The notes beneath the pieces were generated by a model. The model saw only the letters and a list, made by a program, of their open reading frames with translations, was not told where the DNA came from and made no database searches. Positions 469 through 43,700 of a stretch of DNA of 64,000 nucleotides are shown piece after piece. The translations under genes and the position numbers were made by a program. Within the stretch, counting starts at the first letter, position 1; every line of letters starts with the position of its first letter. The stretch is taken from assembly GCA_015233115.1 (NCBI GenBank), contig JADFYJ010000011.1:17824-81823 (forward strand), in the 5' to 3' direction. Source of the DNA: Candidatus Omnitrophota bacterium. GTDB lineage: Bacteria; Omnitrophota; Gorgyraeia; Zapsychrales; Zapsychraceae.

Positions 469-2577
469 ATGTCTGATAGTTGCTGTGGGTGTTCCGGTGA
501 TTCGAAATCAAATAAAAATTCCAAAAATCTGGAAGGATTTTTTAATCCTAAAAGTGTCGCAGTTATTGGCGCGTCCGCTAATCCGGCCAAGATCGGATTT
601 CAGATTTTAAATAATATTGTCGTTGGAGGATATGCGGGTGAGGTGTATCCGATTAATCCAAATGACGCGGAAATTTTAGGAAAAAAAGCTTATAAAACGG
701 TTGGCGATGTGGCGGGCAAAATTGATCTGGCTATCATCACTATCCCGGCGAAATTTGTTATCGCGTCTTTGGAAGAATGCGCGAAAAAAGGCATTAAAAA
801 TGTGGCGATTATCACGTCTGGTTTTGGAGAGGTTGGCAATCATAAAGATGAAGACCGTTTGAAACAGATCGCGGATGAAAACGGCATAGCGTTTATCGGG
901 CCGAATATTCTTGGCTTATTGTATATGCCTTCAAAATTGAACGCGAGTTTCGGGCCAAGCGATGTGTTACCGGGCAAAATCGCATTTATTTCACAGAGCG
1001 GGGCTTTGGCCATAGCTTTGATGGGTTGGACCGCAAAAGAAAAAATCGGGTTGTCCGCGCTGGTAAGTCTTGGTAACAAAGCGGATATAGGCGAGAAAGA
1101 ATTGATTGAATATTTTAATAATGACAAAAATGTTGATGTGAATTTGATTTACATGGAAGGCTTGACTGATGGCCGAAAATTTTTGCAGACTAAAGTTGAG
1201 AAGCCAGTTATCGTTTTAAAAGTCGGACGTTCCGCGCGTGGAGCTAAGGCCGCAGCATCGCATACCGGTTCATTGGCAGGTTCAGATGGAGTATTTAATG
1301 CGGCATTTAAACAATTAGGCATGTTGCGCGCCAGTTCTTTTACGGAAGCATTTGGCTGGGCCAGGGCATTATCCCTTCCTATGCCTAAAGGTGATGAAAC
1401 GATAGTCATTACGAACGGCGGTGGTATTGGCGTGGCTACAACTGACGCGTGCGAAGATGCAGGTATTAAATTAATGGAAGATACGGCTTGGACAGAAGGT
1501 AAGTTCCGCTGTACTATGCCGGATTTTGGAAGTACCAAAAATCCGATTGATATTACCGGCGGAAGCGGAGTTCAAGGATACCGTGACGCGTCGAGAATCG
1601 CGTTTACAGAAGACAGAGTCAACAATGTGATCGTATTGTATTGCGAAACAGCTGTCACAGATCCGGTGGAAGTGGCTAAAGCGGTTTATGATGAATGGGA
1701 AAAATCCGGCAAGAAAAAACCGGTGACAGTCACGATGGTGGGCGGACAGCGCTCCAGCGACGGGATTGCGTATTTGAATGAACGCCACATTCCAGCTTAT
1801 GATAATGTGGAAGAGGCAGTTTCCGGTTTGAAAGTTTTATACACTTGGAAACGTATTAAAGAGCAGAAAAAAGATAATCCTTCCGTTGAAAAAGCTCCCC
1901 AGCAAGCGATTGATCTAATTAATAAAGTTAAAGCTGAAGGCCGTACAGTTATGTTAGAGCACGAAGCGCGTCAAGTTATGGAATTATGCGGCGTGCCTAC
2001 ACCTCCTTGGGGTTTTGCCGTGAGCGAAGATGACGCGGTCAAACAGGCCAACAGCAAGAATTTGTATCCCATCGCGATGAAGATCGCGTCTGTTGATATT
2101 ATTCATAAAACCGATATGGGTGGTGTGGTTTTAAATATCCGCGACGAACAGGATTTGCGAGCCAAATACCGCGCGATGATGGAACATTTGAAAAAAGTAG
2201 CGCCGACCGCTAAGCTGGACGGTGTCAATTTGATCAAAATGGTCAAAGGTATTGAATGTATTGTGGGCTTAAGCCAGGATCCGCAGTTTGGTCCGATCAT
2301 TATGTTCGGATTGGGCGGGGTTTTTGTGGAAGCGTTAAAAGATGTATCTTTCCGCGTGGTGCCGTTTGGCCCGGTGGAAGCGGAACGGATGATCGGCGAG
2401 ATCAAAGCGAAAAAAATTCTCGACGGTTTCCGCGGGATGAAAGCGCATAAGGAAAGTTTGATCGGCACCATGTGCGCGATTCAGAAATTAGCGCCTTATG
2501 TGAAAGAGATCGATGTTAACCCGATCATGACCAGCGCGGAGGGAAGTTACGCGGTGGATGCTAGAATAATTCTGTAA
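469..2577 (+). CDS. acetate--CoA ligase (ADP-forming), fused alpha/beta subunits (NDP-forming acyl-CoA synthetase)
   Basis: 702 aa. The N-terminal region has a CoA-binding Rossmann motif (KSVAVIGASANPAKIG) followed by a succinyl-CoA-synthetase-alpha-like domain. The C-terminal region is an ATP-grasp beta domain. An RBS lies upstream. Confidence 0.85.
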   Translation: MSDSCCGCSGDSKSNKNSKNLEGFFNPKSVAVIGASANPAKIGFQILNNIVVGGYAGEVYPINPNDAEILGKKAYKTVGDVAGKIDLAIITIPAKFVIASLEECAKKGIKNVAIITSGFGEVGNHKDEDRLKQIADENGIAFIGPNILGLLYMPSKLNASFGPSDVLPGKIAFISQSGALAIALMGWTAKEKIGLSALVSLGNKADIGEKELIEYFNNDKNVDVNLIYMEGLTDGRKFLQTKVEKPVIVLKVGRSARGAKAAASHTGSLAGSDGVFNAAFKQLGMLRASSFTEAFGWARALSLPMPKGDETIVITNGGGIGVATTDACEDAGIKLMEDTAWTEGKFRCTMPDFGSTKNPIDITGGSGVQGYRDASRIAFTEDRVNNVIVLYCETAVTDPVEVAKAVYDEWEKSGKKKPVTVTMVGGQRSSDGIAYLNERHIPAYDNVEEAVSGLKVLYTWKRIKEQKKDNPSVEKAPQQAIDLINKVKAEGRTVMLEHEARQVMELCGVPTPPWGFAVSEDDAVKQANSKNLYPIAMKIASVDIIHKTDMGGVVLNIRDEQDLRAKYRAMMEHLKKVAPTAKLDGVNLIKMVKGIECIVGLSQDPQFGPIIMFGLGGVFVEALKDVSFRVVPFGPVEAERMIGEIKAKKILDGFRGMKAHKESLIGTMCAIQKLAPYVKEIDVNPIMTSAEGSYAVDARIIL

Positions 2578-2608
2578 AAGTGGTAAAGGTGATAAAGGTG
2601 AGGTTGTA
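2578..2608. repeat. tandem heptamer array, GGTAAAG family
   Basis: The sequence ggtaaaggtgataaaggtgaggttgtag lies directly after the ACS stop codon. The same family recurs at 60375-60412. Confidence 0.7.
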
Positions 2609-2652
2609 GTAGGGGCGATCTCCTGATCGCCCGAATCAAAATTGGCGCTTTT
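2609..2652 (+). repeat. REP-like hairpin-terminator element (GTAGGGGCGATCTCCTGATCGCCCG + AACAAAATTATCGCTTTT tail), direct copy
   Basis: An 8-bp GC stem GGGCGATC/GATCGCCC with loop TCCT, followed by a conserved tail and a T-run. It belongs to a family of about 10 copies in this window. Confidence 0.8.
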
Positions 2653-2675
2653 GGGGTTGTTAAAATGATTTTAAA

Positions 2676-2709
2676 GCATTGATGCGGGCGATCAGGAGAT
2701 CGCCCCTAC
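2676..2709 (-). repeat. REP-like hairpin element, inverted copy
   Basis: The sequence gcattgatgcgggcgatcaggagatcgcccctac is the reverse complement of the family consensus. With the 2609-2652 copy it forms an inverted pair. Confidence 0.75.
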
Positions 2710-2755
2710 GAAAAAAACGTTGTTTTTTAAATAACGTATCATAGGAGAAAAAATC

Positions 2756-4372
2756 GTGGCAGAAATGAATAAAGAAAATATAAAACAAACTCAGCCTGTG
2801 CCTGGAACAACTGCGGTTAAAAGAAAGCTTATCAGGATGGTTGTTCCGGCATATGCCGCGTTTAACATTTATTCGGCTGTCGCGAATAAAACAACGGCTT
2901 TAGGTCCGGTGGCTTTGGCGACTGTGATCAACAAGATGGATGAATGGGACGTAGAGATCATTGATGAAAATAATCTGCGTCTTTACGGCCCTAAAGGATT
3001 TCCCCGGGGAGCTGACCACGAGTTTATTCAAAAAATCAGACCAGCGGATATGGTGGGCCTTTATGGCGGCTTAACCAGCACCATTCCTCGTTTATATGAA
3101 ATCGCGAAATTTTATAAAAGTCAGGGCGTATTTGTCATGGCCGGCGGCCAGCATTTTGCGGATGACAATATTGAAGAAGCGTTACGCTCCAATATTGACT
3201 TGGTTTGCACCGGCGAAGGCGAAGATACGGTGAGAGAATTTTTGACCGCGTATGCCCAGAATAAAGATTACAAAAATATTAAAGGTTTGGCTTTTCTTCA
3301 GAATAATAAATTAGTCATTAATCCGGAACGCGAACAGATTCAGGATCTGGACCGCTTACCTCTGCCAGATTTTTCTTTGGTGCGTTATGCCAAGATCACG
3401 CTGTATCCGATCGGACGTATCCGCGGTTGCGGTATGGATTGCGAATTTTGCACAGTTAAAGGAAAGCCGCGCTGCGCTTCACCGGAACATTTCATGGAAA
3501 ACATCCGTCATCTGGTCGAGACCCGTGACGCGAAACATTTCTTTATGGTGGATGACTTATTCGGTCAATACCGTAATGAGACGATCCGTTTTTGCAACAT
3601 GTTAAGGGATTATCAATTATCTATTGGCAAGCGTTTGGATTTTACAGCCCAGATTCGTTTGGATAAGGCGAAGGATACGGAATTATTAACGGCCATGCGT
3701 GAAGCCGCTATTAACGCGGTGGCTATTGGTTTTGAATCGCCGATTGAGGAAGAATTGATCGCGATGAAAAAACAAATCCGTCCGCAGGATATGGTGAATT
3801 TAGCGCGTATCTATCATAAATTCGGTTTTCTCGTCCACGGGATGTTTATTTTCGGTTATCCTCCGAAAGAAGGCGTGGAAAAGACGAATATGTCCATGGA
3901 GGAACGCGTTAAACGGTTTAAGAAATTTTTTAGAGATGCCAAGATCGATACTGTGCAAGTTTTACTGCCAGTGCCTTTACCTGGAACAGAGTTACGAGAC
4001 CGGTTAGTGAAACAGGGCCGGGTTTATCCTTTGGAACAGATTGGCTGGGAATATTATGACGGTAATTTTCCGATTTTTGAACCGGATCCGCCTATTACAG
4101 CAGAAGAATTACATTTGGCTGTGCGTAAAATCATGGGTCATTTTTATCAATATAAGTCAGTGCTCTGGGTGATTCTGCATACTTTCTCACTGCCGCATAT
4201 TGTATTTTTCTTCCACCATTTTAAAAAAGGCTGGGCGAGCTGGAAACGCCGCTGGAAGCATAGTTTATTGCGTATGGGCGGATGGGGTATTTTGTCCAAC
4301 TGGATCGCTGAATTCAACAAAAATCCGTTTTCGGAAAAATTGACTAAAGCCAAACAAGCACTAAAAAAGTAA
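2756..4372 (+). CDS. B12-binding domain radical SAM protein
   Basis: 538 aa. It has an N-terminal cobalamin-binding-like domain and a CxxxCxxC motif (GCGMDCEFC). GTG start is 8 nt after AGGAG. Confidence 0.75.
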   Translation: MAEMNKENIKQTQPVPGTTAVKRKLIRMVVPAYAAFNIYSAVANKTTALGPVALATVINKMDEWDVEIIDENNLRLYGPKGFPRGADHEFIQKIRPADMVGLYGGLTSTIPRLYEIAKFYKSQGVFVMAGGQHFADDNIEEALRSNIDLVCTGEGEDTVREFLTAYAQNKDYKNIKGLAFLQNNKLVINPEREQIQDLDRLPLPDFSLVRYAKITLYPIGRIRGCGMDCEFCTVKGKPRCASPEHFMENIRHLVETRDAKHFFMVDDLFGQYRNETIRFCNMLRDYQLSIGKRLDFTAQIRLDKAKDTELLTAMREAAINAVAIGFESPIEEELIAMKKQIRPQDMVNLARIYHKFGFLVHGMFIFGYPPKEGVEKTNMSMEERVKRFKKFFRDAKIDTVQVLLPVPLPGTELRDRLVKQGRVYPLEQIGWEYYDGNFPIFEPDPPITAEELHLAVRKIMGHFYQYKSVLWVILHTFSLPHIVFFFHHFKKGWASWKRRWKHSLLRMGGWGILSNWIAEFNKNPFSEKLTKAKQALKK

Positions 4373-4393
4373 CAGAGTAACCGAGTAACACAG
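4368..4393. repeat. tandem heptamer array, AGTAACA family
   Basis: The sequence agtaacagagtaaccgagtaacacag overlaps the stop codon of the radical SAM gene. Confidence 0.65.
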
Positions 4394-4396
4394 AAA

Positions 4397-4433
4397 AAGC
4401 GATTGATGCGGGCGATCGGGAGATCGCCCCTAC
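4397..4433 (-). repeat. REP-like hairpin element, inverted copy
   Basis: The sequence aagcgattgatgcgggcgatcgggagatcgcccctac. Confidence 0.75.
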
Positions 4434-4514
4434 AAAAGCGATAAAATATATTTGTTTTTTTCACCGCTTGCGGGTGTTCCTGGTGTTATGTTGGACATTG
4501 GTTTTTGTTTTTTT

Positions 4515-4560
4515 GTAGGGGCGATCTCCTGATCGCCCGTAAACAAAATTATCGGTTTTT
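4515..4560 (+). repeat. REP-like hairpin-terminator element, direct copy
   Basis: The sequence gtaggggcgatctcctgatcgcccgtaaacaaaattatcggttttt. Confidence 0.8.
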
Positions 4561-4627
4561 GTTTTATAAATTTTAAATTTTTTTTATCGGGAGGGTTTGT
4601 GCCCTCTCCAACAAGAAGGGATTTTGT

Positions 4628-7600
4628 ATGAGTGAGAATGTCAAAAAGATGGTAACTTTGGATGGGAACGAAGCGGTCGCAATGATCGCGCACAAATTGA
4701 GCGAAGTCATCGCGATTTATCCGATTACTCCGTCTTCCTCGATGGGGGAATGGGCGGACCAATGGACAGCGCAGAATCGCGTTAATCTTTGGGGGACTAT
4801 ACCTTTAGTGCAGGAAATGCAAAGCGAAGCTGGCGCTGCCGGGGCTGTTCACGGCGCGTTACAAACTGGTTCTTTGACGACCACGTTTACGGCTTCACAA
4901 GGTTTATTGCTCATGATTCCTAACATGTTTAAAATTGCCGGCGAGTTGACTCCGACGGTATTTCATGTTACTGCTCGTTCTTTAGCTACACAGGCTCTTT
5001 CGATTTTTGGCGACCATTCTGACGTTATGGCAACCCGTTCAACCGGTTTCGCGTTTTTAGTTTCTAATTCTGTTCAAGAAGCAATGGACATGGCTTTGAT
5101 CGCGCATGCCGCGACCTTAGAAGCCCGCGTTCCGATTATGCATTTTTTTGATGGTTTCCGTACTTCTCATGAAGTAGCTAAGATTGAGATTATTTCCGAC
5201 GATGTGATCCGTCAAATGATCAATGATGATTTTGTGACCCAACATCGTCAACGCGCTTTATCTCCGGATCATCCAGTATTACGTGGAACCGCGCAAAATC
5301 CTGACGTATATTTCCAGGGCCGCGAAACAGTAAATAAATATTACGACGCGTGCCCGGCGATTGTTCAGAAATACATGGATAAATTCGCGAAATTAACCGG
5401 ACGTCAATATTCCTTATATGAATATTACGGCGATCAAAACGCGGAAAATGTAGCTGTCATTATGGCTTCCGGCGCAGAAGCTTGCCAGGAAGCAATTGAT
5501 GTTTTGCGTCAAAAGGGTGAAAAGATTGGTGTGTTAAAAGTCAGATTATATCGTCCTTTCGCGATTGAGTCTTTCGTTAATGCGTTACCGAAAACGGTTA
5601 AGAAAATAGCGGTCATGGATCGCACGAAAGAACCGGGCGCTAATGGCGATCCGCTTTATTTAGATGTGATCAATGCTCTATATGAATTACGTAAAACCGG
5701 TAAAACCGCACTGGATCCTTTGGTTATTGGCGGTCGTTATGGTCTTTCGTCTAAAGAATTCACACCAGCTATGGTTAAGGCTATTTTTGATGAATTAAAG
5801 AAGGCTCAGCCGAAACATCATTTTACCGTCGGCATCAATGATGATGTCACGCATACCAGTTTAACGGTGGACGCTTCTTTTATTACTGAAGATCCTAAAG
5901 GTGTGCAGGCGATATTCTATGGTTTAGGTTCTGATGGTACTGTCGGAGCGAACAAGAATTCCATCAAAATTATCGGTGAAGAAACTCCGAATTTCGCGCA
6001 AGGTTATTTCGTGTATGATTCGAAAAAAGCCGGATCTGTCACAGTATCTCACTTGCGTTTCGGGCCGAATCCGATTCATTCCACTTATTTAGTATCAGCG
6101 GCGAATTTTGTGGCTTGCCATCAATTTTCGTTCCTGGAAAAATATGATTTGTTAAGTAAGACCAAAGAAGGCGGCGTGTTCCTTTTGAACAGCCCGTATC
6201 CAGCTGATAAGGTCTGGGATAAATTGCCGCTCGAAGTTCAACAACAAATCATCACCAAAAAATTGAAATTTTATGTCATTGATGGTTATGACGTCGCAGG
6301 CAAAACCGGCATGGGCGTGCGTATCAACACGATTATGCAAACCTGCTTCTTCGCGATTTCCGGCGTGCTTCCCAAAGATGAAGCGATTGCCGCCATTAAA
6401 TACGCGATCAAAAAAGAATATAGTAAAAAAGGGGAAGAGGTTGTTCAGAAGAATTATAACGCTGTTGATCAAACTCTTGAGAATTTACATGAAGTGAAAG
6501 TCCCGGCTACAGCGACCAGCACGATTGTGAAACCTCCGATCGTATCAGACAAAGCTCCGGCTTTTGTCAAAGATGTCTTGGCCGAAATTTTGCTTGGCCG
6601 CGGTGATGATATTCCAGTCAGTAAAATGCCGATTGACGGCACATTCCCTACGGGAACTGCGCAGTGGGAAAAACGTAATATCGCGCTGGAAATTCCGGTA
6701 TGGGATCCGCAAGTGTGTATTCAGTGCGGTAAATGTTCAGCCGTCTGTCCTCACGCGGTTATCCGTATGAAGGTGTATGATCCGAAATGTTTACAAGGCG
6801 CGCCTGTGACCTTCAAATCCATAGATTCCAAAGTGAAAGAATGGGAAGGCAAAAAATGCACGATCCAAGTTGCTGTCGAAGATTGTACCGGATGCGGGGC
6901 ATGCGTGTTTACTTGTCCGGCGAAAAACAAAGCGGATGAAACTAAAAAAGCGATTAACATGTCTCCCCAGATTCCGTTGCGCGAAACTGGAAAAGCGGAT
7001 TGGGAATTTTTCTTAGGGTTACCGGAATTAGATCGTAATTTAGTCAATAAATCTATGATCCGCACGATGGAAGTATTACAACCGTTATTCGAGTTCTCCG
7101 GCGCTTGCGCGGGTTGCGGGGAAACTCCGTATATCAAAATGGTTACCCAGTTATTCGGCGACCGTATGATTATCGGTAACGCAACCGGTTGTTCTTCCAT
7201 TTATGGCGGAAATTTACCGACGACACCATATACAAAAAATAACGAAGGCCGTGGTCCGGCATGGTCAAACTCCTTGTTCGAAGATTGCGCCGAATTTTCA
7301 CTCGGTTTCCGTTTATCCGTTGATAAACAATCGCAATATGCCGCGGAATTATTGAAAAAATTATCCGCCAAACTGGGCGATACTTTAACCACCGCGATTT
7401 TAACCGCGACTCAAAAAGATGAAGCGCAGATTTTTGAACAGCGTAAACGCGTGGCAGAAATGAAGCAAAAATTGCAGGGCGATTCTTCTGCGGAAGCCAA
7501 GCAGTTAATGGGTGTCGCGGATATGTTAGTCAAAAAGAGCGTATGGGCGTTCGGCGGCGACGGTTGGGCGTATGACATTGGTTACGGCGGTTTGGACCAT

Positions 7601-9744: not shown

Positions 9745-12700
9745 ATGAGTAAATATAGGACTTCAAACAGTCTATTTGTGCGTAAATTAATAAGTATATT
9801 TCTTATATTTACCTTTATATTCTCTTCAATAAATATTCCGCAATATGCTTATGCTCAAACCGCGCCGCTCATGCCCGTTCCCGGAACTATGGTCGGGTTA
9901 ACTCCGCCGTTTAATCCGCCGGTTCTTAAAGGTATTAAAGTCTATCCAGACAACCCGCTTCGATTTGATTTCATTTTGGATAACGGCTTCGCCCTTATCC
10001 AAAATGACCCTGAGCGACCAGCGGGAGTCGAAGGGTTACAACAAGAAGCGAAAAAGCTTATCAAATATTTTCTAGCCTCACTGACTGTTCCCGAAAACGA
10101 TTTATGGGTCAACCTGTCACCGTACGAAAAAGGCCGCATTGTCCCCAAAGAGTTCGGCCAAACCGAAATGGGCCGGGATCTCTTGGCGCAAGATTATCTT
10201 TTGAAACAAATCACCGCGTCCCTAATGTATCCCGAAAATGAAATCGGCCGAGAATTTTGGGATAAGATATACAAAAAACTGTATTCCTCTCCCCTTCGGG
10301 GAGAGGGAAGGGTGAGGGGTTTAGATATTCCTATCGATACGTTCAATAAGGTTTGGATCGTCCCAGAAAAAGCCGTAGTCTTTGAAAATGGTTCGACTGG
10401 CTCACCATGGAACGCAGCTTATGTCGTTGAAAGTAAATTAAAAGTCATGCTCGAATCAGATTATCTTGCCGCGTCGAAAAATATTGCGTCCTCGTTCGTA
10501 GGGGAGGGTCCCCGCCCCTCCCGCATACAAGAATCCGCCAAACAAATCATCCGCGAAGTCATTATTCCCGCGATCGAAAAAGAAGTGAATACCGGTAAAA
10601 ACTTTGCCCAGCTCCGTCAAGTCTACAACTCTTTGATCCTTGCTGCCTGGTACAAAAAGAAAATCAAAGAAAGCTTATTAAGCAAAATTTATGTCGATAA
10701 AAACAAAATTACCGGCGTAAACATTGATGATCCTAAAGCTGCGGAAAAAATCTGGGCGCAGTACGTCGAGTCATTTAAAAAAGGCGTTTATAACTACATT
10801 AAAGAAGAATACGATCCAAATACACAGCAAATCATTCCGAAAAAATATTTTTCCGGCGGGTTTGATGCCGCTCAATTATTTGGCAACAAAATAAATTCTG
10901 CCCTAACAATAACGAAAGTATTGCCTTCCAATAAAGCAAATGAAGAGAAGCAGCGTAATAGTGTGGTTTCAGTCAATATGGATCCGGTTAATTTTTGGGG
11001 TAAGATTCAAAAACGACTAACTCCTTTCATATTTGCCGCTTCGTTGTTGACTACATCTTACAGCGCGCTTGGAGTTCAATTTTTTAATCATGAACTAGAA
11101 GGGCATGGTAAAGAGACATCAATTGCTTTAGTGCAAAAAGGTGACAGCTTCATTTCCATTGCCCAAGCCATATGTAAAAAAGCCAAAAAATCTTTTACTG
11201 AAGAGCAGATCAAAAGAGTAGCCGACGCCATTAAAGAGGATAATGCGAAAAATTTAAAAGGAGAAAATCTGTCTCCCGGAGAAAATTTAAACATCAATAA
11301 AGCTGAAGGATTGGTTTGGTCCATTGATCTCTTGAATAATTCCCAAATCGTGGCCACATCCAAGATTGCTATTGCAGGGAATCAGCCGATTGATGTTTAT
11401 TTCATTCGACCGGCAGATAAAAAGGAATTTAATAATTTTGTTGCGTTTGCGTCGATTGAAACCGGGCAGCTTTTTATGGATGTTGATCAGTTTGTTGAGC
11501 AATTGAATGTGTTTAAAAAAATTATAAAAAATCCCCGTTCTGTTTGGGCGAAGTTATATCAAGGGAAAAGTGATCAGTATATATTTGAACATTACATGGC
11601 GGAAATGATTTACCATGAATATGTTCACACCTTGACAACGCCTATCATCCGTTCAAAAAAATTTGATTCTCAAACAAAGGAGTTTAAGGAATACCTGCAA
11701 GATGATTCCCATGACATTTATCGGGTGGCAGAAGAAGTGTCTGCCTATTTAGCTCAAGCGTCTGTGAGCGAAGAACCGGCCATGGCATTGACGGGATTGG
11801 TAGATAAAATTGATTCGCAACAATTCGGAACAGATGATTATGCTGCGGCTGGTTTTGTTTTGATGCGCCAAATCATGACCCCATTAGGATATGAACAATA
11901 TTTATTAAACACCATGAAGCAGCAACAAGGACGGGAAATAACCGCAGACGAAAAAAAAGGTTTGCATGAAGCTTATGAATCGGGTTCGTATGCGATGAAC
12001 GAATATAGGGGTGTATTAGCAAAATTTTTGCTTCAAAATCCAAAAGATCAATTACGGCAATCAACACACGCTTCATTCAAAAATATATTCGGAATCGATT
12101 TGCCTGGCTTTACTCAATTTACAATTCCGAGACAAGTTATAGAGGATTATTCAACAAGAGGAGCAGAACATAAATTAATAGATGCTGGCGACGTTATTAA
12201 AGATCAGGCGATGATTGCGGGAAAATTAAAATCTAAAATTATTCGTGCCTTGGCGGTTTCGTTAATGGCATATTATTTTACGGGATCTGTTAAGGGTGCA
12301 GAGTTTACGGATATTTCTTTTCCTTATGGATATAAAACAACAGTGGCAAAAGCGCAGACAGGGGATACACCCGAATCAGTGGTGAGAAGATTTGTTGATT
12401 TGCAGGTTGTGGCACAGAAAAAGTATATGCCTTTAGGGGATACGGTTTGGGATGAATTTGTTAGTAAGTATGGTTTGATTGATAATTATGGAGTACTACA
12501 AGAAAAATTTATAGCGTTGAAAGATTTTAACGAGTTTAAGTCGGTTATTGGTGCAATGAATGAGGAATATGCAAAGAAAATATATGATTATTTAAAGTTA
12601 ATTCAGGAACATATCTATAAACTCAGCCCAGATGAAATTGCCCAGATAACCAGTAAAATTAGTAAAAATTTACAGAGAAAAATAGCAAACGGTAAATTTG

Positions 12701-15700
12701 TTCCAGGCGAAATTGTTGATTTGAAATCAGCAACCGAGGAGTTGCGTTTTATTTCAACGCTCAAAAGCGATGATATCGTGGGCAGCACAACTGTTACTAT
12801 CAATAAGAATCCAGTAGAAATTTATTTTGTGAATAAAGATACCGGGGTTAGGTTGGCGTATACGTCAGAAAACAGGGTGTTTATGAATTTAGGAAGTTTT
12901 CGGGCAATTCCTGGTGAAACAAAAGAGATTATAGCCGAAGCCACGAAGGAAAGTATTTCACAATTACAGGTACGAACTTTTCCGGCAGGTATTAAAGACA
13001 GTGAGATTTTCTTTTCTAAACTTAGAGAACTATTGGCTCATGAGTTTGCGCATACGTTGACTACAGCTTTAGTGGAAAGTGGCGCAGTTAAAATATACCC
13101 AGCGCCAGTTTCGGATAATGAATACATGGCAACCATGGAAGTGTCAGGGATTTTGGGTCAAATCGCGGGTAGCGACCATCCGGTTAAAACATTTGCAGAA
13201 TTCAAAGGTGCGGCACAAAGTCTTTTTTTCGAAGGCGGGCAACAATATATTATTGCTTCGCAAACGATTAGTGACCGTATGCTTGAGCTTTTGCATTTTG
13301 GTGATTATGTGCTTAAACGGGAAAATGAAAAACGCGATAAGTCAGAAAAGGAACCGTCTAAACCATTAACTGCGGATGATTTCTCGAATTTGAAGAAAGA
13401 GGCGGTTACTCAAATTATGACAGATCTTAAACAATCGGGTTATATTAATGCCGAAGGTAAAATTTTACAATGTCCTCTTTTGGGTGATGCCAGGGAATTT
13501 AAAATTAATGGTAAATATTCCGATAAAGAACGTGAAATGATTTATGACCGCTTACTGCGCTCATATGATCTTAATTCGTGGGGTGTGTCGGAGGATTTAA
13601 AAGATGGTGCTGTTTTTAAGGAGGATGCAATCGAATTTTTTCTAAAGTTAAATCCGGACGCCGTGCGTCAGGCGGCTCGCGATGTTCATAAAGCCATATT
13701 TGGCGTTGACCTGTCCACAGATCCTGTGACAATTCCTGATTTTGTGAAAGAGTATAGCATTAAGAAATATTTTCCTGCTGAAGAAACGACAAAAAGCCAT
13801 AAAGATCAAGCAATGATTGTAGGGCAATTAAAGTACAAAATTATTCGGGCCTTGGCGGTTTCGTTAATGGCATATTATTTTACGGGCGCTGTTAAGGGCG
13901 CAGAATACACAGATATTTCATTTCCTTATGGATATAAAACAACGGTAGCAAAGACTCAGCAAGGGGATACACCTGAATCAGTTGTTAAGAGGTTTATTGA
14001 TTTACAAGTGGTAGCACAAAAAAAGTTGATGCCCTTGGGAGATACGGTATGGGATGATTTCGTTAAGTATGGGTTTATTGATAATTTTGGCGTGCTTCAA
14101 GAAAAATTTTTGGCATTAAAAAATTTTGAAGATTTTAAAAAAGTTATCGGCCCAATGAAAGAGGAATATGCAAAGAAAATATATGATTACTTAAAGTTAG
14201 TTCAAGAGCATATCATTAAACTCAGCCCGGATGAAATTGCTCAATTAACAAGTAAAATTAGTAAAAATTCGGTGGTAAAAATAAAACATGGAAAATTTAG
14301 TCCTGACGAAATCGTTGATTTGAAATCCGCAACTGAGGAACTCAGTTTTATATTACAGCTTAAAAGCGACGATATTGTCGGGAGCACAACAGTTTCGATC
14401 AATAAGAAGCCGGTAGAAATTTATTTTGTGAACAAGGACACCGGTGTTCATTTGGCATATACTTCGGAAAACAGGGTCTTTATGAATTTAGGAGGTTTTC
14501 GGTCTGCGACAACTGACACAAAACAGATTATAGCTCAAGCCAAAAAAAATAGTATTAGTCAATTAGATGTACGCGCTTTTCCTGTAGGAACAACAGATAG
14601 CGACATTTTCTTTTCTAAGCTCAAAGAACTATTGGCTCATGAGTTTGCGCATACGTTGACTACAGCTTTAGTGGAAAGCGGCGCAGTTAAAATATACCCA
14701 GCGCCAGTTTCGGATAATGAATACATGGCAACCATGGAAGTGTCAGGGATTTTGGGTCAAATCGCGGGAAGCGACCATCCGGTTAAAACATTTGCAGAAT
14801 TCAAAGGTGCGGCACAAAGTCTTTTTTTCGAAGGCGGACAGCAATATATTATTGCGTCACGCACGATTAGTGAGAGGATGCTTGAATTGTTGCATTTTGA
14901 TGAGTATGTGCTAAAACGCGAACACGAAAAACAAGATAAGGTGAAAAAGGAGCCGTCGAAACCATTGAAAGCGGATGATTTTTTTGGTTTTGAAAAAGAG
15001 GCCGTCCCGAAAATTATGGCGGATCTTCAAGGTATGGGGTATATCGATAATAAAGGAAATATTTTACAATGTCCGCTTTTGGGTAATGCTAAAGATTTTA
15101 AAATCAAAGGTCATTATTCTGCTGAAGAACGTGAAATGATTTATCGATATTTATTAAGGGCATTTGATCATCATATGTTAGGTGTCTTGCTGCAGTTACA
15201 AGATGGAATCGCTTCAGACGAGGATGAAGTTGAATTTTTTCTGGGTTTAAATCCGGATGCCGTGCGTCAGGCGGCTCGCGATGTTCATAAAGCCATATTT
15301 GGCGTTGACTTGCCCACGAATCCTGTGACAATTCCGGATTTTGTAAAAGAGTATAGCATTAAGAAATATTTTCCTGCTGAAGAAAAGACAAACAGCCATA
15401 AAGATCAGGCGATGACAAATGAAGAAACAGCTGCAACTAACATGAATCAAAATATCGAGCAAGAGCCTATACCAGTCTTTGGCATGTCTCCATGGCGAAG
15501 GGATAACATAAGCTTCAAACAAATTACTGATGTTGGCCGGTTGAATGCTGCAGGTGTACGAAAATTAATCGGGTATATCGATTCACTCCCTGCTCCCGAA
15601 GTTGAGCAAATCATTAAATATTATATGGCTAAGGGTTTTGGTGTTAAGGCATATAAAAACGGAGAGATTTCTATCAATGGAGGGGCGGTATTTGTTTGGG

Positions 15701-16095
15701 ATCGTGTTAATCTGCAAAAGCTGATTAATCAGAATTTAGGCATTTTGAAAGCAGCCGGAATACCCAGTGATAAGGACGGCGGGATATCTGCGGATGATTT
15801 AGCTGACTATATTGCAAAACATAACGTATCTTCTGAAAAATATCCTGAAGCCTATGCCACCGTTGGAATAGCTTTTGCTGATTCTCGTTTTAATCAGCAG
15901 GCATTGGCTTTTAATAAAGGCGGTATTGACTTGAATCCTGTAGACAAAACCTTGCAAATTCAAAGCAACGGCGATGTCATTAAATTCAACATCGACCCTG
16001 CCATGCTGGAACAGTTAAAAAATGCTTCCGGTTTTTCGCCTATCATTATCAATATTACGCCGCTGAAGGATTTAAAAATGTTTTTGGGGATATGA
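9745..16095 (+). CDS. giant secreted modular protein (2116 aa), paralogue of 40775..45784, with three HExxH modules
   Basis: The signal peptide ends in PQYAYAQ. An N-terminal domain of about 330 aa and the C-terminal 50 aa are conserved with the second giant ORF. The central part is a tandem of modules of about 535 aa each, carrying HEYVH, HEFAH and HEFAH. Confidence 0.8.
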   Translation: MSKYRTSNSLFVRKLISIFLIFTFIFSSINIPQYAYAQTAPLMPVPGTMVGLTPPFNPPVLKGIKVYPDNPLRFDFILDNGFALIQNDPERPAGVEGLQQEAKKLIKYFLASLTVPENDLWVNLSPYEKGRIVPKEFGQTEMGRDLLAQDYLLKQITASLMYPENEIGREFWDKIYKKLYSSPLRGEGRVRGLDIPIDTFNKVWIVPEKAVVFENGSTGSPWNAAYVVESKLKVMLESDYLAASKNIASSFVGEGPRPSRIQESAKQIIREVIIPAIEKEVNTGKNFAQLRQVYNSLILAAWYKKKIKESLLSKIYVDKNKITGVNIDDPKAAEKIWAQYVESFKKGVYNYIKEEYDPNTQQIIPKKYFSGGFDAAQLFGNKINSALTITKVLPSNKANEEKQRNSVVSVNMDPVNFWGKIQKRLTPFIFAASLLTTSYSALGVQFFNHELEGHGKETSIALVQKGDSFISIAQAICKKAKKSFTEEQIKRVADAIKEDNAKNLKGENLSPGENLNINKAEGLVWSIDLLNNSQIVATSKIAIAGNQPIDVYFIRPADKKEFNNFVAFASIETGQLFMDVDQFVEQLNVFKKIIKNPRSVWAKLYQGKSDQYIFEHYMAEMIYHEYVHTLTTPIIRSKKFDSQTKEFKEYLQDDSHDIYRVAEEVSAYLAQASVSEEPAMALTGLVDKIDSQQFGTDDYAAAGFVLMRQIMTPLGYEQYLLNTMKQQQGREITADEKKGLHEAYESGSYAMNEYRGVLAKFLLQNPKDQLRQSTHASFKNIFGIDLPGFTQFTIPRQVIEDYSTRGAEHKLIDAGDVIKDQAMIAGKLKSKIIRALAVSLMAYYFTGSVKGAEFTDISFPYGYKTTVAKAQTGDTPESVVRRFVDLQVVAQKKYMPLGDTVWDEFVSKYGLIDNYGVLQEKFIALKDFNEFKSVIGAMNEEYAKKIYDYLKLIQEHIYKLSPDEIAQITSKISKNLQRKIANGKFVPGEIVDLKSATEELRFISTLKSDDIVGSTTVTINKNPVEIYFVNKDTGVRLAYTSENRVFMNLGSFRAIPGETKEIIAEATKESISQLQVRTFPAGIKDSEIFFSKLRELLAHEFAHTLTTALVESGAVKIYPAPVSDNEYMATMEVSGILGQIAGSDHPVKTFAEFKGAAQSLFFEGGQQYIIASQTISDRMLELLHFGDYVLKRENEKRDKSEKEPSKPLTADDFSNLKKEAVTQIMTDLKQSGYINAEGKILQCPLLGDAREFKINGKYSDKEREMIYDRLLRSYDLNSWGVSEDLKDGAVFKEDAIEFFLKLNPDAVRQAARDVHKAIFGVDLSTDPVTIPDFVKEYSIKKYFPAEETTKSHKDQAMIVGQLKYKIIRALAVSLMAYYFTGAVKGAEYTDISFPYGYKTTVAKTQQGDTPESVVKRFIDLQVVAQKKLMPLGDTVWDDFVKYGFIDNFGVLQEKFLALKNFEDFKKVIGPMKEEYAKKIYDYLKLVQEHIIKLSPDEIAQLTSKISKNSVVKIKHGKFSPDEIVDLKSATEELSFILQLKSDDIVGSTTVSINKKPVEIYFVNKDTGVHLAYTSENRVFMNLGGFRSATTDTKQIIAQAKKNSISQLDVRAFPVGTTDSDIFFSKLKELLAHEFAHTLTTALVESGAVKIYPAPVSDNEYMATMEVSGILGQIAGSDHPVKTFAEFKGAAQSLFFEGGQQYIIASRTISERMLELLHFDEYVLKREHEKQDKVKKEPSKPLKADDFFGFEKEAVPKIMADLQGMGYIDNKGNILQCPLLGNAKDFKIKGHYSAEEREMIYRYLLRAFDHHMLGVLLQLQDGIASDEDEVEFFLGLNPDAVRQAARDVHKAIFGVDLPTNPVTIPDFVKEYSIKKYFPAEEKTNSHKDQAMTNEETAATNMNQNIEQEPIPVFGMSPWRRDNISFKQITDVGRLNAAGVRKLIGYIDSLPAPEVEQIIKYYMAKGFGVKAYKNGEISINGGAVFVWDRVNLQKLINQNLGILKAAGIPSDKDGGISADDLADYIAKHNVSSEKYPEAYATVGIAFADSRFNQQALAFNKGGIDLNPVDKTLQIQSNGDVIKFNIDPAMLEQLKNASGFSPIIINITPLKDLKMFLGI
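12037..15420 (+). repeat. intragenic tandem duplication of about 1.6 kb (two full units plus a partial third) inside the giant gene
   Basis: Units at 12037-13650 and 13651-15249 with a partial third from 15250. The segment 13026-13262 against 14626-14862 is nearly identical at nucleotide level, while the flanks are only protein-level similar. Confidence 0.8.
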
Positions 16096-16227: not shown

Positions 16228-18375
16228 ATGGAGATTAGATGGCTTTCCCCGTTTTTTCTGGGTTTGATATCAACCCTCGCCCAAATTATGCTTTTGCGTG
16301 AATTGAATGGGGTGTTTGGCGGGAATGAGATTGGATACGCGTTTGTGCTCGGGAGTTGGTTATTATGGGTGGCTCTTGGCGCTGCGGCTATTAGGTTATT
16401 AGGCTACCGAGTAAAAAATGTAAAAGTTTTACTGTTTATTGGGTTTTTGCTGTTTATTGGGTTTTTGCTGTTTGCAATCCTGATTCCTTCCTTAATTTTT
16501 TTATCCCGTTATCTTAAATTGTTTTTTAATATTCATCCCGGAGAATTAGTGGGTTTGCCGTGGATGATGGGTGTTTCTATCCTTGTGACCGCGCCGCTTA
16601 GTTTTTTAACCGGAGCGATGTTCGCGGTATGCTGTCTACCTTATAGAAAACAAAACTCGCGGAATAATGACTATGTCACTAAAATTTATTACGCTGAATC
16701 TTTAGGGTCGGCTTCAGGAGGAGCTTTATTTTCTTTTGTCATGGTATATTTCTTATCCAATTTGTGGATAGGGTTGGGGCTGGGAGCTTTGGATGCCAAA
16801 TCTAAACAAGCACAATGGTCACCCTTGAAGGTTGCGGCATATACAGATTCTTTGTACGGGCAGTTGACTCTTACTGAATCCAAGGGAGAATACAGTTTAT
16901 ATGAAAACGGTGGGCACAGTTTTACGACCGGGGATTTTTTATCGTCGGAAGAGATGACGCACTATGCCATGCTTTGGCACCCTAATCCTAAAAGAGTTTT
17001 GTTGATAGGAGGGGGAATGGGTGGGGCGTTAGAAGAGATTTTAAAATACAGATCAGCCCAAATCGACTATGTTGAGCTTGATCCAAAAATAATGAGTTTA
17101 AGCGGAGCTAATTTACCGACGCGGTATACCAAAGTTTTGAATGACCCGCGGACCCGCGTGATTAATATGGACGGACGGCGTTTTGTCAAAACCGCGCAGA
17201 TGAATGTTATGACCAAGTCTCCTTATGATGTGATCATTATTGGTGTCGGCGATCCGCATACTTTATTGCAGAACCGTTATTACACTAAAGAATTTTTTGC
17301 TGAGGCGAAACGGGTGCTTAATCAAGACGGGGTGATTAGTTTTTCCGCTCAGTCTGCGGCAGATTATCTGAGTAAGGAAAACCGTCAATCTTTACAATCG
17401 TTTTATTCCACCTTAAAAACTTCATTTAAAAATATTAAATCTTTGCCTGGAGACAGGCATATTTTTGTCGCGTCCAACCGGAATGACTTTGGGTCATGGA
17501 CAGCCGCGTTTTTTGAACAGCAGATCAAACAACGGGGGATTAATACACAATTTGTTTCTAAGGCGTATTTGCCCGCGCGGTTTGATCCATACCGTATAGC
17601 TGAAGTGGAAAAAATCTTGTCTGTTCCCGGGTGGATTAATACCGATGAAAGACCAACCGCTTTTTTATTAGATACCTCTTTGTGGGCCAGTCATTTTAAT
17701 ACTGGATTCGGTGAGTGGTTTGGCCGTCTTGCCAATATTTCTTTTCTTTTCGTTATAGGTTTTATTGTCATCTTGTTTTTGTTTTTTGCTGTTTGGTCGC
17801 GCTTCAAAAAAAATGTTGCCATGGGTACGGCAATTTTTGTAACGGGATTTTGGGGTATGGTTTATCAGATTTTGATCATTCTGGCGTTTCAAAGTATTTT
17901 CGGCTATGTATATCAGAAAATAGGTTTGATCATTGCGTTATTTATGCTTGGATTAGCCGGAGGAAGTTGGATAGCACAAAAACAGTCCCATAATAATGAT
18001 CAAAAGAGGATTCAGAAAATATTCAACAGTTCACAAGTTTGGGGCATGTTTTATTGTTTGTTTTTACCATTTATTTTTTTAGTGTTTCGTGATACTGTGT
18101 TGAAAGGTTTTCAAGTGGATATTTTGTTCTTCGTATTTATGAGTTTGCCTTTTTTAGCCGGAGGGATGGTCGGGTGGCAGTATGGCCTGGCTGTTATGTT
18201 ATTGGGAAATGAAAGCAGGTCTGCCACAGGTTTATACGCGTTGGATGTGCTTGGCGCAGCCTTAGGCGCTTTTTTAGCGGGGATATTTTTAGTGCCGGTT
18301 TTCGGTATCAGTCAGGTGTCATTGTTGTGCGGATTTTTGAATTTTGCTGTATTTTTAATCTTTGTGCTTTTTTAG
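16228..18375 (+). CDS. polytopic membrane protein fused to a spermidine-synthase-like (SpeE-fold) domain
   Basis: 715 aa with many TM helices. A central domain has an aminopropyltransferase-like fold (LIGGGMGGALEEI...VELDP). An internal 18-nt tandem repeat encodes LLFIGFLLFIGF. Confidence 0.6.
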   Translation: MEIRWLSPFFLGLISTLAQIMLLRELNGVFGGNEIGYAFVLGSWLLWVALGAAAIRLLGYRVKNVKVLLFIGFLLFIGFLLFAILIPSLIFLSRYLKLFFNIHPGELVGLPWMMGVSILVTAPLSFLTGAMFAVCCLPYRKQNSRNNDYVTKIYYAESLGSASGGALFSFVMVYFLSNLWIGLGLGALDAKSKQAQWSPLKVAAYTDSLYGQLTLTESKGEYSLYENGGHSFTTGDFLSSEEMTHYAMLWHPNPKRVLLIGGGMGGALEEILKYRSAQIDYVELDPKIMSLSGANLPTRYTKVLNDPRTRVINMDGRRFVKTAQMNVMTKSPYDVIIIGVGDPHTLLQNRYYTKEFFAEAKRVLNQDGVISFSAQSAADYLSKENRQSLQSFYSTLKTSFKNIKSLPGDRHIFVASNRNDFGSWTAAFFEQQIKQRGINTQFVSKAYLPARFDPYRIAEVEKILSVPGWINTDERPTAFLLDTSLWASHFNTGFGEWFGRLANISFLFVIGFIVILFLFFAVWSRFKKNVAMGTAIFVTGFWGMVYQILIILAFQSIFGYVYQKIGLIIALFMLGLAGGSWIAQKQSHNNDQKRIQKIFNSSQVWGMFYCLFLPFIFLVFRDTVLKGFQVDILFFVFMSLPFLAGGMVGWQYGLAVMLLGNESRSATGLYALDVLGAALGAFLAGIFLVPVFGISQVSLLCGFLNFAVFLIFVLF

Positions 18376-40774: not shown

Positions 40775-43700
40775 ATGTTTTCTGCAAAAAAAGTTATTTC
40801 ATCTGTTTTACTGGTCGTTATTTCTTTAACCTTTACAGTGCCGCCGCAATATGCGCAAGCACAATTTGTATTGACGCCAAGCATTCCTGCGCCAACAAGT
40901 TACGTTCCTGTTATAATCAAGGGCGTAAATCTTAATCCGCAGAATCCGCTCAAGTTCGATTTTATTATCGACCGAGGAACTTCCTCCGCTGATTTGCCTT
41001 TGGCAAATCAAAGCGCGGAGGCTGCGTTTCGTTCCGAATCGCAGAAACTAATCCGCTACTTTTTAGCTTCTTTAACTATCCCCCAAAAAGATATGTGGGT
41101 TAACCTTTCGCCGAATGAGCCAGACAGAATTGTGCCACAAACTTTTGGTAACACAGAAATGGGCCGCGATTTATTAGCGCAAGATTTTATGCTGAAACAA
41201 CTGACAGCCAGTCTCATGAGCCCGGATGGAGAAGTGGGACGAAAGTTTTGGGATAAAGTCTACGCCAAAATTTACGAAACTCCCTCTCCCCTTCGGGGAG
41301 AGGGTAGGGTGAGGGGTTTAGAAATCCCCACCGACATTTTTAACAAAGTCTGGATTGTCCCATCTAAAGCCAAAATTTATGAACATGAAAAAGGTGCGTT
41401 TATTACAGATACAGCGTTTAAAGTCATGACAGAGCGCGACTATGTCGCGCAGACACAAGACACAGGACACAAGTCACAAGAAGGACAAGATGCTGTGACC
41501 TTACAAATAGTCAAAGATGTTATCATCCCCGCTATTGAACAAGAAGTCAACCATGGCAAAACTTTTGCTAACTTGCGCCAGATCTATAATTCTCTTATCT
41601 TAGCCATGTGGTACAAAGAAAAAGTTAAGAAAAGCGTGCTCGGCCAGGCTTACTCTAATAAAGAGAAGACTTCTGGTCTAGAAGTCGCCTCAAATGAAAA
41701 ACAAAAGATCTACCAACAATATCTCGACGCTTTCCGTAAAGGCGCGAGTAATGCGATTAAAGAAGAATATGATCCCAATACCCAACAAATTGTAGCCCGG
41801 AAATATTTCTCTGGCGGTATTCAAGCAGATCAGGCACAAATTTCATTAGCTACAAAAGAGGAAATGGACGCGGCTATGAAAGCTGCCATTGCCACGGAGA
41901 ATGTTGCGACGGTAATTCAGTTTGCAGGAGCCAAAGCCCCTGACGCGGCGATGACCAGCGAAATTGTTAAAGAAATAGTTAAAAGTTTTGTTGAAGATTT
42001 TAAAAGAAAGCGTCTACCTGGTGGTTTTAATTTTTCTGTTGATGCCCAACAAAGCGGAGAAGATGTTATAGTTACAATTGAACAAACTACCAGGTCTCTG
42101 CCCCCGATACTAATTCAAGATTTTTATCACTATGTTAGCTGGTTGACAAATAAATTTACTTCTCCAATTAAATTGACACCGATGGATAGTCTGAGTGCGT
42201 ATATGCGTAAATTTAAAATTTCCGACGCGGCGATGATGTCTGTAGAGAAATACAATCGGGTGATAAAAGATGCTGAGCAAGCTTGGGGAGGAGAATTGGA
42301 GCGAGCGGATCAATTGGTTGAGTTTTTGAAAAATCGATTTAATCCTGAAAAAGCTTTGGAATCAGGAGCGATTTTTATTCCCAGGGCTGTGGTGCAGAAT
42401 GAAGCGCGGATGGGTTTAACGCCTATTGGGATTAAACTGTTAAAAAGTTTAGGCATTAAAAATGAAATTTATGTCGAAGCTGCAGCAGGAATAAATCGGC
42501 AGAGTGGCAAGGTTTATTTCACGGATGCGTATTACATAAATGCTGGAGCAAAAATTTTGTCCCATGATGAATTTTATAAACGGGCGGAACAAGCAGATAA
42601 AAAAGTTGTGGTGAGCATTAAGGAACCGCAAGAATCAGAATACAAATTATTAAAAAACGCGCTGTTATTTACTTATTTGCATTTGGCGGATAGCCCTAAG
42701 TTGACTCAGGATTTGTTAAATTTATTAGCAACTGGTGTGGCGTATGAAACTATTGCTTTTAAAACGCCAGAGGGGATAACCAGAACTCCGGTGTTAGCTC
42801 CTGCCAGTATTGCCGCTGGGTGGGTCAGCGCGGCCCGTACTGCCGCATTTTTTGGGGGGATAATTAATGACGAAAGACAGCGTATATTTGCAGAATCATT
42901 ACAGTATTATGCCACTTCTGAAAATTTCCCTCTTAACTTGCGGAAAAGTTTAGAAGGAATAACTGTAACTGTTCTGGGCGGCGGAGTTGCCGGAGAAAGC
43001 GCAGCCATAACTCTCGCGAAAATGGGAGCAAAGGTTTATATCACAGAAGTTAATCCTAAAAGGATCCTGGAGTTAGAAAAGATAATCACTTCACAAGGAT
43101 TAGGATTAGCGATTACAGTTTTAAAAAGAGATCTTTCTGTTCCACGGGTCTTTGACCAATTTCGAACAGAATTGTTAGAATCATCCGCGATAATTGGCGC
43201 CGTTCTTATCCCCGGAGCCAAGGCGCCGAAAGAGATAGATGAATCAACATATGAAGCGCTGGTCAAAGGAGGAAAATTTAAATTTTTTGCTGATATAGCG
43301 ATTGATCAAGGCGGAAATAACGTCAGAAGTGTCGCGCGTAAATATCAAGATGGCTGGCCTATGGATGAAAATCGAGTCGGACAATTTACTGTGACAAACA
43401 TGCCCAGCGTTGTTCCTTTGCAGGTTTCATTTGGTTTGGAACGAGCCAAATTAGCGTATTTAGTAGCGCTTTTGATGGGCACACCAGAAGCGGTCAAGGC
43501 GTTTCCCGAATTAGAGCAGGGTGTGAACATCCGTAATGGCCAGATCACGAATAAGCCGGTCGGGGAAGCGGTTAGAATGGATGCTGTTTCATTAAAAGAA
43601 GCAGATGAAGCAATCGCGACAGTTGATGCGGCGATGACCGTAGACCCGTTTAATCTTACTACAAAAAATGTGGCGGAATGGGATAATATTCAACGGGCGA

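Follow-up and report, generated by a model that had tools for sequence, protein, structure and literature searches.

Tandem modules with a homogenised HExxH core in a giant, predicted exported protein of an Omnitrophota bacterium

ORF1 is a giant open reading frame (ORF) in a 64,000-nucleotide (nt) window of the Candidatus Omnitrophota contig JADFYJ010000011.1 (assembly GCA_015233115.1, positions 17,824–81,823); coordinates below are those of the window. Two of its three HExxH-bearing modules, here called A and B, are a tandem duplication, and a short tract around their HExxH motif is nearly identical between the copies, even at silent sites, with old divergence on either side. Taken together, these observations are best explained, and on balance we think probably explained, by duplication followed by gene conversion within an exported, three-headed, zincin-like protein.

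Modules A and B are a tandem duplication

A giant ORF had been placed at 9745–16095 in a preliminary description of this DNA. It is present there, and its product is identical to NCBI entry MBF0479215.1, labelled ‘hypothetical protein’ and assigned to a Candidatus Omnitrophica metagenome-assembled genome (MAG). The protein consists, in order, of a signal peptide, an N-terminal domain of ~335 amino acids (aa; the N-domain), three modules (N, A and B), each closed by the pentapeptide KDQAM, and a ~58-aa GGIDLN C-terminus. The modules and their linkers are as follows.

9745–16095, + strand: ORF1, 2116 aa.
11017–12213, + strand: module N, with HEYVH at 11614–11628, the aligned Glu664 at 11734–11736 and a LysM-like N-subdomain.
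12199–12213, + strand: KDQAM linker at the junction N→A, AAAGATCAGGCGATG.
12211–13815, + strand: module A (aa 823–1357), with HEFAH at 13039–13053 and Glu1132 at 13138–13140.
13801–13815, + strand: KDQAM linker at the junction A→B, AAAGATCAAGCAATG.
13813–15414, + strand: module B (aa 1357–1890), with HEFAH at 14638–14652 and Glu1665 at 14737–14739.
15400–15414, + strand: KDQAM linker at the junction B→C, AAAGATCAGGCGATG, the same letters as in the copy at 12199–12213.

When ORF1 was compared with itself by BLAST, the sole strong direct repeat paired gene nt 2454–4072 with 4056–5671 (82.1% identity over 1,620 nt), with a period of 1,599–1,602 nt. This one repeat pair is A and B, which are 82% identical in nt and 80% in aa, and it upholds the earlier proposal of a tandem of ~1.6 kb with two complete copies. 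Local identity ranges more widely than the 70–85% aa identity then given for most of each module, from 35 to 100% in aa (62–100% in nt) when the copies are compared codon by codon in 20-codon windows. What had been taken for a truncated third copy, at 12037–12210, is instead the C-terminal tail of a complete and anciently diverged module N (aa 425–823). Module N shares 22–23% identity with A and B (E = 1e-11 to 5e-13), its tail by itself is 42% identical (E = 3e-4), and it belongs to another subfamily of the same domain. It also carries the upstream third HExxH that had been noted near 11615, namely HEYVH. Beyond module B, the KDQAM linker alone recurs.

All three junctions read K-D-Q-A-M, and the strong similarity of A and B begins and ends exactly at this linker. 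The duplicated unit is flanked by a 15-nt linker-coding repeat, AAAGATCA(G/A)GC(G/A)ATG, and the middle linker departs from the outer sequence at two silent positions. Modules A and B are a lineage-specific tandem duplication with breakpoints within the 15-nt KDQAM-coding linker. On the simplest reading, unequal recombination between two linker repeats flanking a single ancestral module would have produced the pair. The copies have since drifted apart to a synonymous divergence (dS) of ~0.9 under purifying selection (omega 0.13–0.28). Because both are under purifying selection, both A and B are presumably functional.

A tract around the HExxH motif is nearly identical between the copies

Within this diverged pair lies a tract of near-identity, which extends from one residue before LLAHEFAH to ~30 residues past the helix that carries Glu1132.

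13026–13238, + strand: homogenised tract, copy in module A; 2 of 213 nt differ from the copy in B.
14625–14837, + strand: homogenised tract, copy in module B, partner of 13026–13238.

Both differences (T/C at 13080/14679 and T/A at 13170/14769) are silent and fall in third codon positions, and the run of identical amino acids reaches from aa 1095 to aa 1172. The tract is 99% identical over its 213 nt, and the windows that bound it on both sides are 65–80% identical. An almost identical core of ~240 nt had been reported previously; the near-identity is real, but the B coordinates were one base high. In the correct register, 13026–13262 against 14625–14861, the full 237 nt contain 7 differences, all but one of them in third positions.

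Silent sites distinguish the tract most clearly. By the Nei–Gojobori method, aa 1095–1165 have a dS of 0.065 and a nonsynonymous divergence (dN) of 0, whereas two large old segments of the A/B pair have a dS of 0.98 and 0.88 (omega 0.13 and 0.28). Of the codons that encode the same degenerate amino acid in both copies, 3 of the 69 in the tract carry a silent change, compared with 95 of the 269 in the old parts (Fisher P = 3e-8). When the silent differences were permuted 100,000 times, no stretch of 68 such codons had ≤2 of them (longest 67; P<1e-5). Non-crossover gene conversion classically leaves such a footprint, in which a short stretch matches even at silent sites and older divergence borders it on each side. 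We consider gene conversion the best reading of these comparisons, because dS is 0.065 against 0.88–0.98 and protein-level selection alone cannot explain identity at silent sites. The preliminary description had left the choice between conversion and purifying selection; the synonymous-site analysis points to conversion, with selection probably having influenced which converted tract was retained. One copy would have been overwritten by the other in a recent, short-tract event.

The ends of the two modules contain a second, less clean patch.

13624–13815, + strand: intermediate-divergence patch that closes module A; dS 0.28 against ~0.9 in the old parts.
15223–15414, + strand: the corresponding patch that closes module B, paired with 13624–13815.

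This patch differs significantly from the old parts (Fisher P = 0.0016). It may reflect an older conversion or a crossover exchange, and would then record an earlier exchange between the copies.

Three other explanations of the near-identity were weighed. It is improbable that collapse, mis-threading or a strain chimera during assembly produced the two tandem modules or made the tract identical. The contig does come from a MAG whose sole database copy is the same assembly, and a near-repeat of 213 nt exceeds typical k-mers. Against this, A and B lie 18% apart in nt, well above strain variation, their in-frame junction coincides exactly with the linker, and each has an omega of ~0.2. The two silent differences left in the tract mean that the copies were resolved as distinct, De Bruijn assembly does not average sequences, and tandem modules of the same family also occur in two related proteins (P0003 and P0015).

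Protein-level purifying selection that kept the core identical without any exchange of DNA is very unlikely. Such selection would suit a tract that coincides with the sole invariant residues of the family (below) and has a dN of 0, but it leaves silent sites unprotected, and it is at those sites that the tract stands apart in both codon counts and dS. Other strongly conserved stretches of the modules, moreover, have numerous silent changes.

It is highly unlikely that the nucleotides themselves are conserved by an embedded element, such as a regulatory site, a gene on the opposite strand or an RNA with a structure of its own. In its favour is a G+C fraction of 0.455 in the tract against 0.37 in the rest of the module; it was rejected on a folding energy no better than that of shuffles (z = −0.06), the lack of any Rfam match within 9–17 kb and overlapping ORFs of just 32–96 codons, the tract also being without similarity elsewhere in the window. 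No third copy that could have served as donor was found within the window either. Gene conversion stays our preferred account of the tract.

The near-identical core coincides with the only invariant residues of a rare module family

When 1.84 billion cluster representatives were scanned exhaustively with phmmer, only 22 proteins related to the module came up, mostly from Omnitrophota. The top match was ORF1 itself (MBF0479215.1, 100%) and the runner-up was 32% identical. We excised 26 modules from these 22 proteins and aligned them; mean column identity was 21%, and just three columns were invariant. These are H277, H281 and E310 of module A, corresponding to H1099, H1103 and E1132 of ORF1, with E1132 lying 29 residues past the second His of HEFAH. 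The Glu of HExxH itself (E278 of the module, E1100 of ORF1) is kept in 24 of the 26 modules, all three of ORF1 included, and 19 of the 22 proteins have an HExxH motif. The earlier suggestion that the near-identical segment encodes a catalytic core is backed in this way at the level of sequence. Conversion (or selective retention) and family-wide invariance appear independently to mark the same functional core of ~70 residues (HExxH…E) in a family that is annotated in no database.

Other searches returned little. Neither NCBIfam, PHROGs nor Protein Data Bank (PDB) sequence and profile searches of the module gave anything above threshold, and the Pfam matches to HExxH families were faint and below the domain threshold (eCIS_core at 22.5 bits for the whole protein, DUF2268 and Tox-MPTase5). 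Word-index protein searches with module A, the family alignment and a 106-aa core found no match, nor did an exact-protein contig look-up for ORF1; both are weak negatives, as each also missed ORF1's own database entry. Metagenome scans with back-translated peptides, and with a 131-nt degenerate pattern that matches both copies in the window, were likewise without a match.

Among the relatives other than ORF1, 11 of 21 carry the N-domain/GGIDLN frame of ORF1, whole or in part, and the remainder include stand-alone proteins with N-terminal signal peptides. The neighbourhoods of the stand-alone homologues lie on short or uninformative contigs. Around P0009/P0024, at three loci (L080, L082 and L083) on contigs that look unlike the Omnitrophota N-domain context, a DUF2846 protein, a 158-aa unknown protein and the HExxH protein form a conserved trio with overlapping stop and start codons.

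Predicted structure and a putative zinc site

AlphaFold2 modelled module A poorly from its single sequence (mean predicted local distance difference test (pLDDT) score 36.6) and well with the 26-sequence alignment (pLDDT 83.2; predicted template-modelling score 0.81). The model begins with a poorly predicted hydrophobic N-terminal helix, followed by a strand–helix…helix–strand unit and a four-stranded sheet (residues 188–226). Next come a helix at 263–289 that contains HEFAH (277–281), a 12-residue loop, a helix at 302–320 that contains E310, and a helical C-terminal part. The block formed by the HEFAH and E310 helices has a pLDDT of 92–98. In the model H281 sits 8 residues short of the end of its helix and E310 is 8 residues into the next, positions that would suit two residues opposed across a pair of antiparallel helices. 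The preliminary description had raised metzincin or gluzincin geometry with a third zinc ligand; the model, with HEFAH in a helix and an invariant Glu on the following one, shows the gluzincin pattern and not that of metzincins. A Foldseek comparison of the module model with the PDB gave a best E of 0.19, and thus no significant fold match to known zincins.

On this model, the converted patch would encode a gluzincin-type His-His-Glu zinc site, made up of the HEFAH helix and the Glu1132 helix behind a β-sheet, and Glu1100 would be the catalytic base. The most likely role of ORF1, judged by its motifs and the model, is that of an exported zinc hydrolase or peptidase with three heads, probably directed at substrates associated with the envelope or cell wall, whether of the bacterium itself, of a host or of prey.

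The modules could alternatively be non-hydrolases, that is, metal-binding domains or pseudo-enzymes with a structural, binding or cargo-handling role of the kind proposed for DUF4157 in toxins of extracellular contractile injection systems (eCIS). We regard this as unlikely, though it deserves more weight than any explanation set aside above. Neither fold nor profile comparison linked the modules significantly to a characterised peptidase, and the sole Pfam hint is to the functionally unexplained eCIS_core (PMC8213781). The catalytic Glu is missing from two members of the family, P0010 and P0021, whose motif is HAxxH; that of P0002 is HEFSGH. Against a non-hydrolase role stand the catalytic Glu, kept in nearly all modules and in every one of ORF1, and the invariant His-His-Glu triad after a β-sheet, which in the model is the zincin catalytic arrangement. 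Occasional loss of catalytic residues is common in enzyme families. The three variant proteins keep both His and the downstream Glu, and may be pseudo-enzymes that still bind metal.

Duplication and conversion of an exported zincin-like protein remains the explanation that we favour, and several points weigh against it. In the collections searched there was no orthologue carrying the A/B pair, and no phylogenetic support for concerted evolution. An assembly effect may have acted in the 213-nt near-repeat. For the modules, no profile of Pfam or NCBIfam attains its domain threshold. Catalysis is not universal in the family, given the HAxxH motifs of P0010 and P0021 (HAYAH and HAIIH) and the HExxxH motif of P0002. 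Finally, the geometry of the His/His/Glu metal site is inferred from helix positions in the model, and the substrate of ORF1 is pure inference.

A LysM-like head and signal-like starts of the modules

The strand–helix–helix–strand (βααβ) unit at the start of the module in the model of A carries the pattern GD[TS]..[SI].....L.PG..L. Module N aligns with the LysM profile (PF01476) over positions 3–42 of 43 at 19.6 bits, below the cut-off of 20.9 (E = 9e-4). One further family member gave E = 0.012, and 8 of 10 members had no match. In A and B the LysM-like unit is interrupted by a helical insert of ~70 aa. This head may target ORF1 to peptidoglycan.

Directly after the linker Met, each module of ORF1 has a segment that resembles a signal peptide, in which a basic n-region is combined with a hydrophobic core and small residues (11017–11080, 12211–12290 and 13813–13890). 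Module A starts with KLKSKIIRALAVSLMAYYFTGSVKG / AEF, and a further example of such an internal start is MIAGKLKSKIIRALAVSLMAYYFTGSVKG / AEF. The stand-alone relatives P0004, P0009 and P0013 have genuine N-terminal signal peptides at the equivalent place. That the internal modules keep these signal-peptide-like starts suggests that entire genes for secreted proteins were taken up as modules; alternatively, the segments could be internal membrane anchors. As a general rule for the wider family, signal-like or twin-arginine translocation (TAT)-like segments after linkers were rejected, being present in 19/171 and 2/156 cases, respectively.

ORF1 shares its frame with a wider Omnitrophota family

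Outside the modules, ORF1 consists of parts that recur in other proteins.

9745–9858, + strand: predicted Sec-type signal peptide (…AYA / Q), aa 1–38, with a hydropathy peak of 1.94 at aa 11–29.
9859–10860, + strand: Omnitrophota N-terminal ‘carrier’ domain of ORF1 (N-domain), aa 39–372.
15919–16092, + strand: C-terminal GGIDLN…FLG domain, aa 2059–2116, also in ORF2 and most Omnitrophota N-domain proteins.

The N-terminus of ORF1 reads as a Sec-type signal peptide whose putative cleavage motif was read off the sequence. The N-domain (~335–370 aa) matches nothing in Pfam and recurs as 269 stretches in Genome Taxonomy Database (GTDB) species genomes, 50–65% identical. Its carriers are almost all Omnitrophota or mislabelled ‘Planctomycetales’ MAGs, often with several copies per genome, and the GGIDLN domain was found downstream in most N-domain loci. 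ORF1 has the complete family frame: a signal peptide, an N-domain of ~335–370 aa and a ~58-aa GGIDLN…FLG end. The HExxH module was absent from all 79 GTDB N-domain loci that we fetched (L001–L079).

A second member, ORF2 (40775–45784, + strand, 1669 aa), lies in the same window and is labelled ‘FAD-dependent oxidoreductase’ by NCBI. The N-domains of ORF1 and ORF2 are 50% identical over 370 aa, and the last 58 aa of ORF1 match a stretch close to the end of ORF2 at 45% identity. Between these parts ORF2 carries alanine dehydrogenase/PNT domains and unannotated regions, and the cargo of P0003 is a CheR-type methyltransferase. An NAD-dependent dehydrogenase is an odd cargo for an exported protein such as ORF2.

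The two N-domain genes also share a GC-rich, in-frame insert of 45 nt (ORF1 ~10284–10328; ORF2 ~41281–41325) that is identical at 44 of 45 positions, the surrounding N-domains being ~69% identical. It contains the 8-bp palindrome CTCTCCCC-TTC-GGGGAGAG and encodes SPLRGEGRVRGL; similar ‘LRGEGKGEG’ inserts occur in two of the GTDB loci (L001 and L005). The insert could be an in-frame element of the REP (repetitive extragenic palindromic) or RPE (Rickettsia palindromic element) kind, or a product of conversion between the paralogues.

The KDQAM linker of ORF1 is one form of a motif, D-x-[AS]-M, that marks the limits of cargo modules across the N-domain family and is strongly enriched there: 99 proteins contain 184 copies, where 27.9 would be expected. 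There are 4–9 copies per protein against ~0.3 in shuffles, with 7 in ORF2 and 9 in P0003. That the linker Met might serve as an internal translation start was considered and rejected: a Shine–Dalgarno-like sequence lies ahead of 68% of real starts, compared with 15% of linker Mets and 23% of other internal Mets. Since such sequences seldom precede linker Mets, D-x-[AS]-M is a signal at the level of protein or recombination, not an internal start.

One bolder proposal, which we think doubtful, is that ORF1 and ORF2 represent an undescribed Omnitrophota cassette system, in which a constant N-domain carrier and GGIDLN ends frame swappable, D-x-A-M-delimited cargo and the linker serves both as DNA microhomology and as a protein processing site. 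The cargo of such a system would include zincin-like heads, alanine dehydrogenase and methyltransferases. Microhomology at the linkers would let whole modules be duplicated, swapped and converted; as a processing site the linker would release the modules, and the HExxH modules could themselves be the processing enzymes. Some modules do retain a signal-peptide-like start of their own. D-x-A-M as a signal for both cassette shuffling and processing is possible but unsupported.

Genes around ORF1

The genes around ORF1 encode PFOR, an AAA_14/DUF4143 protein, a spermidine-synthase-like protein, radical SAM proteins and Mla transporter proteins. Within the spermidine-synthase-like ORF (16228–18375), an 18-nt tandem repeat, TTTTGCTGTTTATTGGGT, occupies 16427–16473 (2.6 copies, 96% match), in the N-terminal, probably membrane, part of the protein.

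Significance

Tandem duplication followed by short-tract conversion is a textbook process, and our findings change no principle. What is new is an unannotated and very rare zincin-like domain family in an undescribed modular Omnitrophota architecture. The Omnitrophota are suspected of a predatory or episymbiotic life and have unusual multi-enzyme surface proteins. The module may represent a new family of zincin-like hydrolases, possibly with a LysM-like head for targeting, and the architecture of N-domain, D-x-A-M linkers and GGIDLN end might account for the way in which these bacteria build and vary long exported proteins.

Comparison with known systems

Gene conversion within and between paralogous genes is known in bacteria, for example in tufA/tufB and in genes for repeat-containing surface proteins. 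As in those cases, the patch of near-identity in ORF1 includes silent sites and lies inside diverged tandem paralogues; unlike them, it coincides precisely with a putative active site inside a single ORF.

The gluzincins, among them thermolysin (M4), M1, M3 and M78 ImmA/IrrE (H82/H86/E113), combine HExxH with a downstream Glu ligand. The modules of ORF1 resemble them in having HExxH on a long helix after a β-sheet, an invariant Glu on the following helix and a catalytic Glu that is almost always kept; the distance between the second His and the Glu is also within the range generally known for gluzincins. The modules differ in lacking ExxxD/NExxSD around the third ligand, where they have E-[VI]-[SA]-[GA] instead, and in the absence of significant profile or Foldseek similarity to solved zincins. 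They differ too in the LysM-like head of each module and in a helical insert of ~100 aa that is found in the A/B subfamily only.

With PF13699 eCIS_core (DUF4157, ‘PVC-metallopeptidase’) the modules share an LLAHExxH-type motif. Scored on the whole of ORF1, this profile just passes its cut-off (22.5 bits against 22) as the sum of two weak matches in the LLAHEFAH region, no single stretch passing; isolated modules score 13.9–16.3 bits, and 1 of the 26 family modules matches. The match is limited to ~12–40 residues around the motif, and the modules are internal rather than N-terminal to a toxin. DUF4157 is known from its association with eCIS operons or its N-terminal position in toxins, and its function is likewise unexplained (PMC8213781). 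No eCIS genes were seen among the neighbours of ORF1 in the window.

LysM cell-wall hydrolases have a counterpart in the βααβ unit at the module start, with its GD[TS]...I...L.PG..L pattern. The likeness is limited in that the score lies under the Pfam cut-off, the unit is split in A and B, and peptidoglycan binding is putative.

Among Omnitrophota proteins, the closest parallel is with the giant multi-enzyme proteins of the ‘Archaeovorin’ type, which are exported or membrane-associated and combine unrelated enzyme-like domains, peptidases included; growth by domain duplication has been suggested for them (bioRxiv 10.1101/2023.11.21.568195; 10.64898/2026.06.07.730766). ORF1 is 10–70 times shorter and belongs to a separate multi-copy family defined by N-domain, D-x-A-M and GGIDLN, of which we found no description in these two reports. 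As an exported zinc hydrolase, ORF1 would nevertheless fit the cell-surface-degrading roles that have been proposed for long Omnitrophota proteins (bioRxiv 10.1101/2023.11.21.568195).

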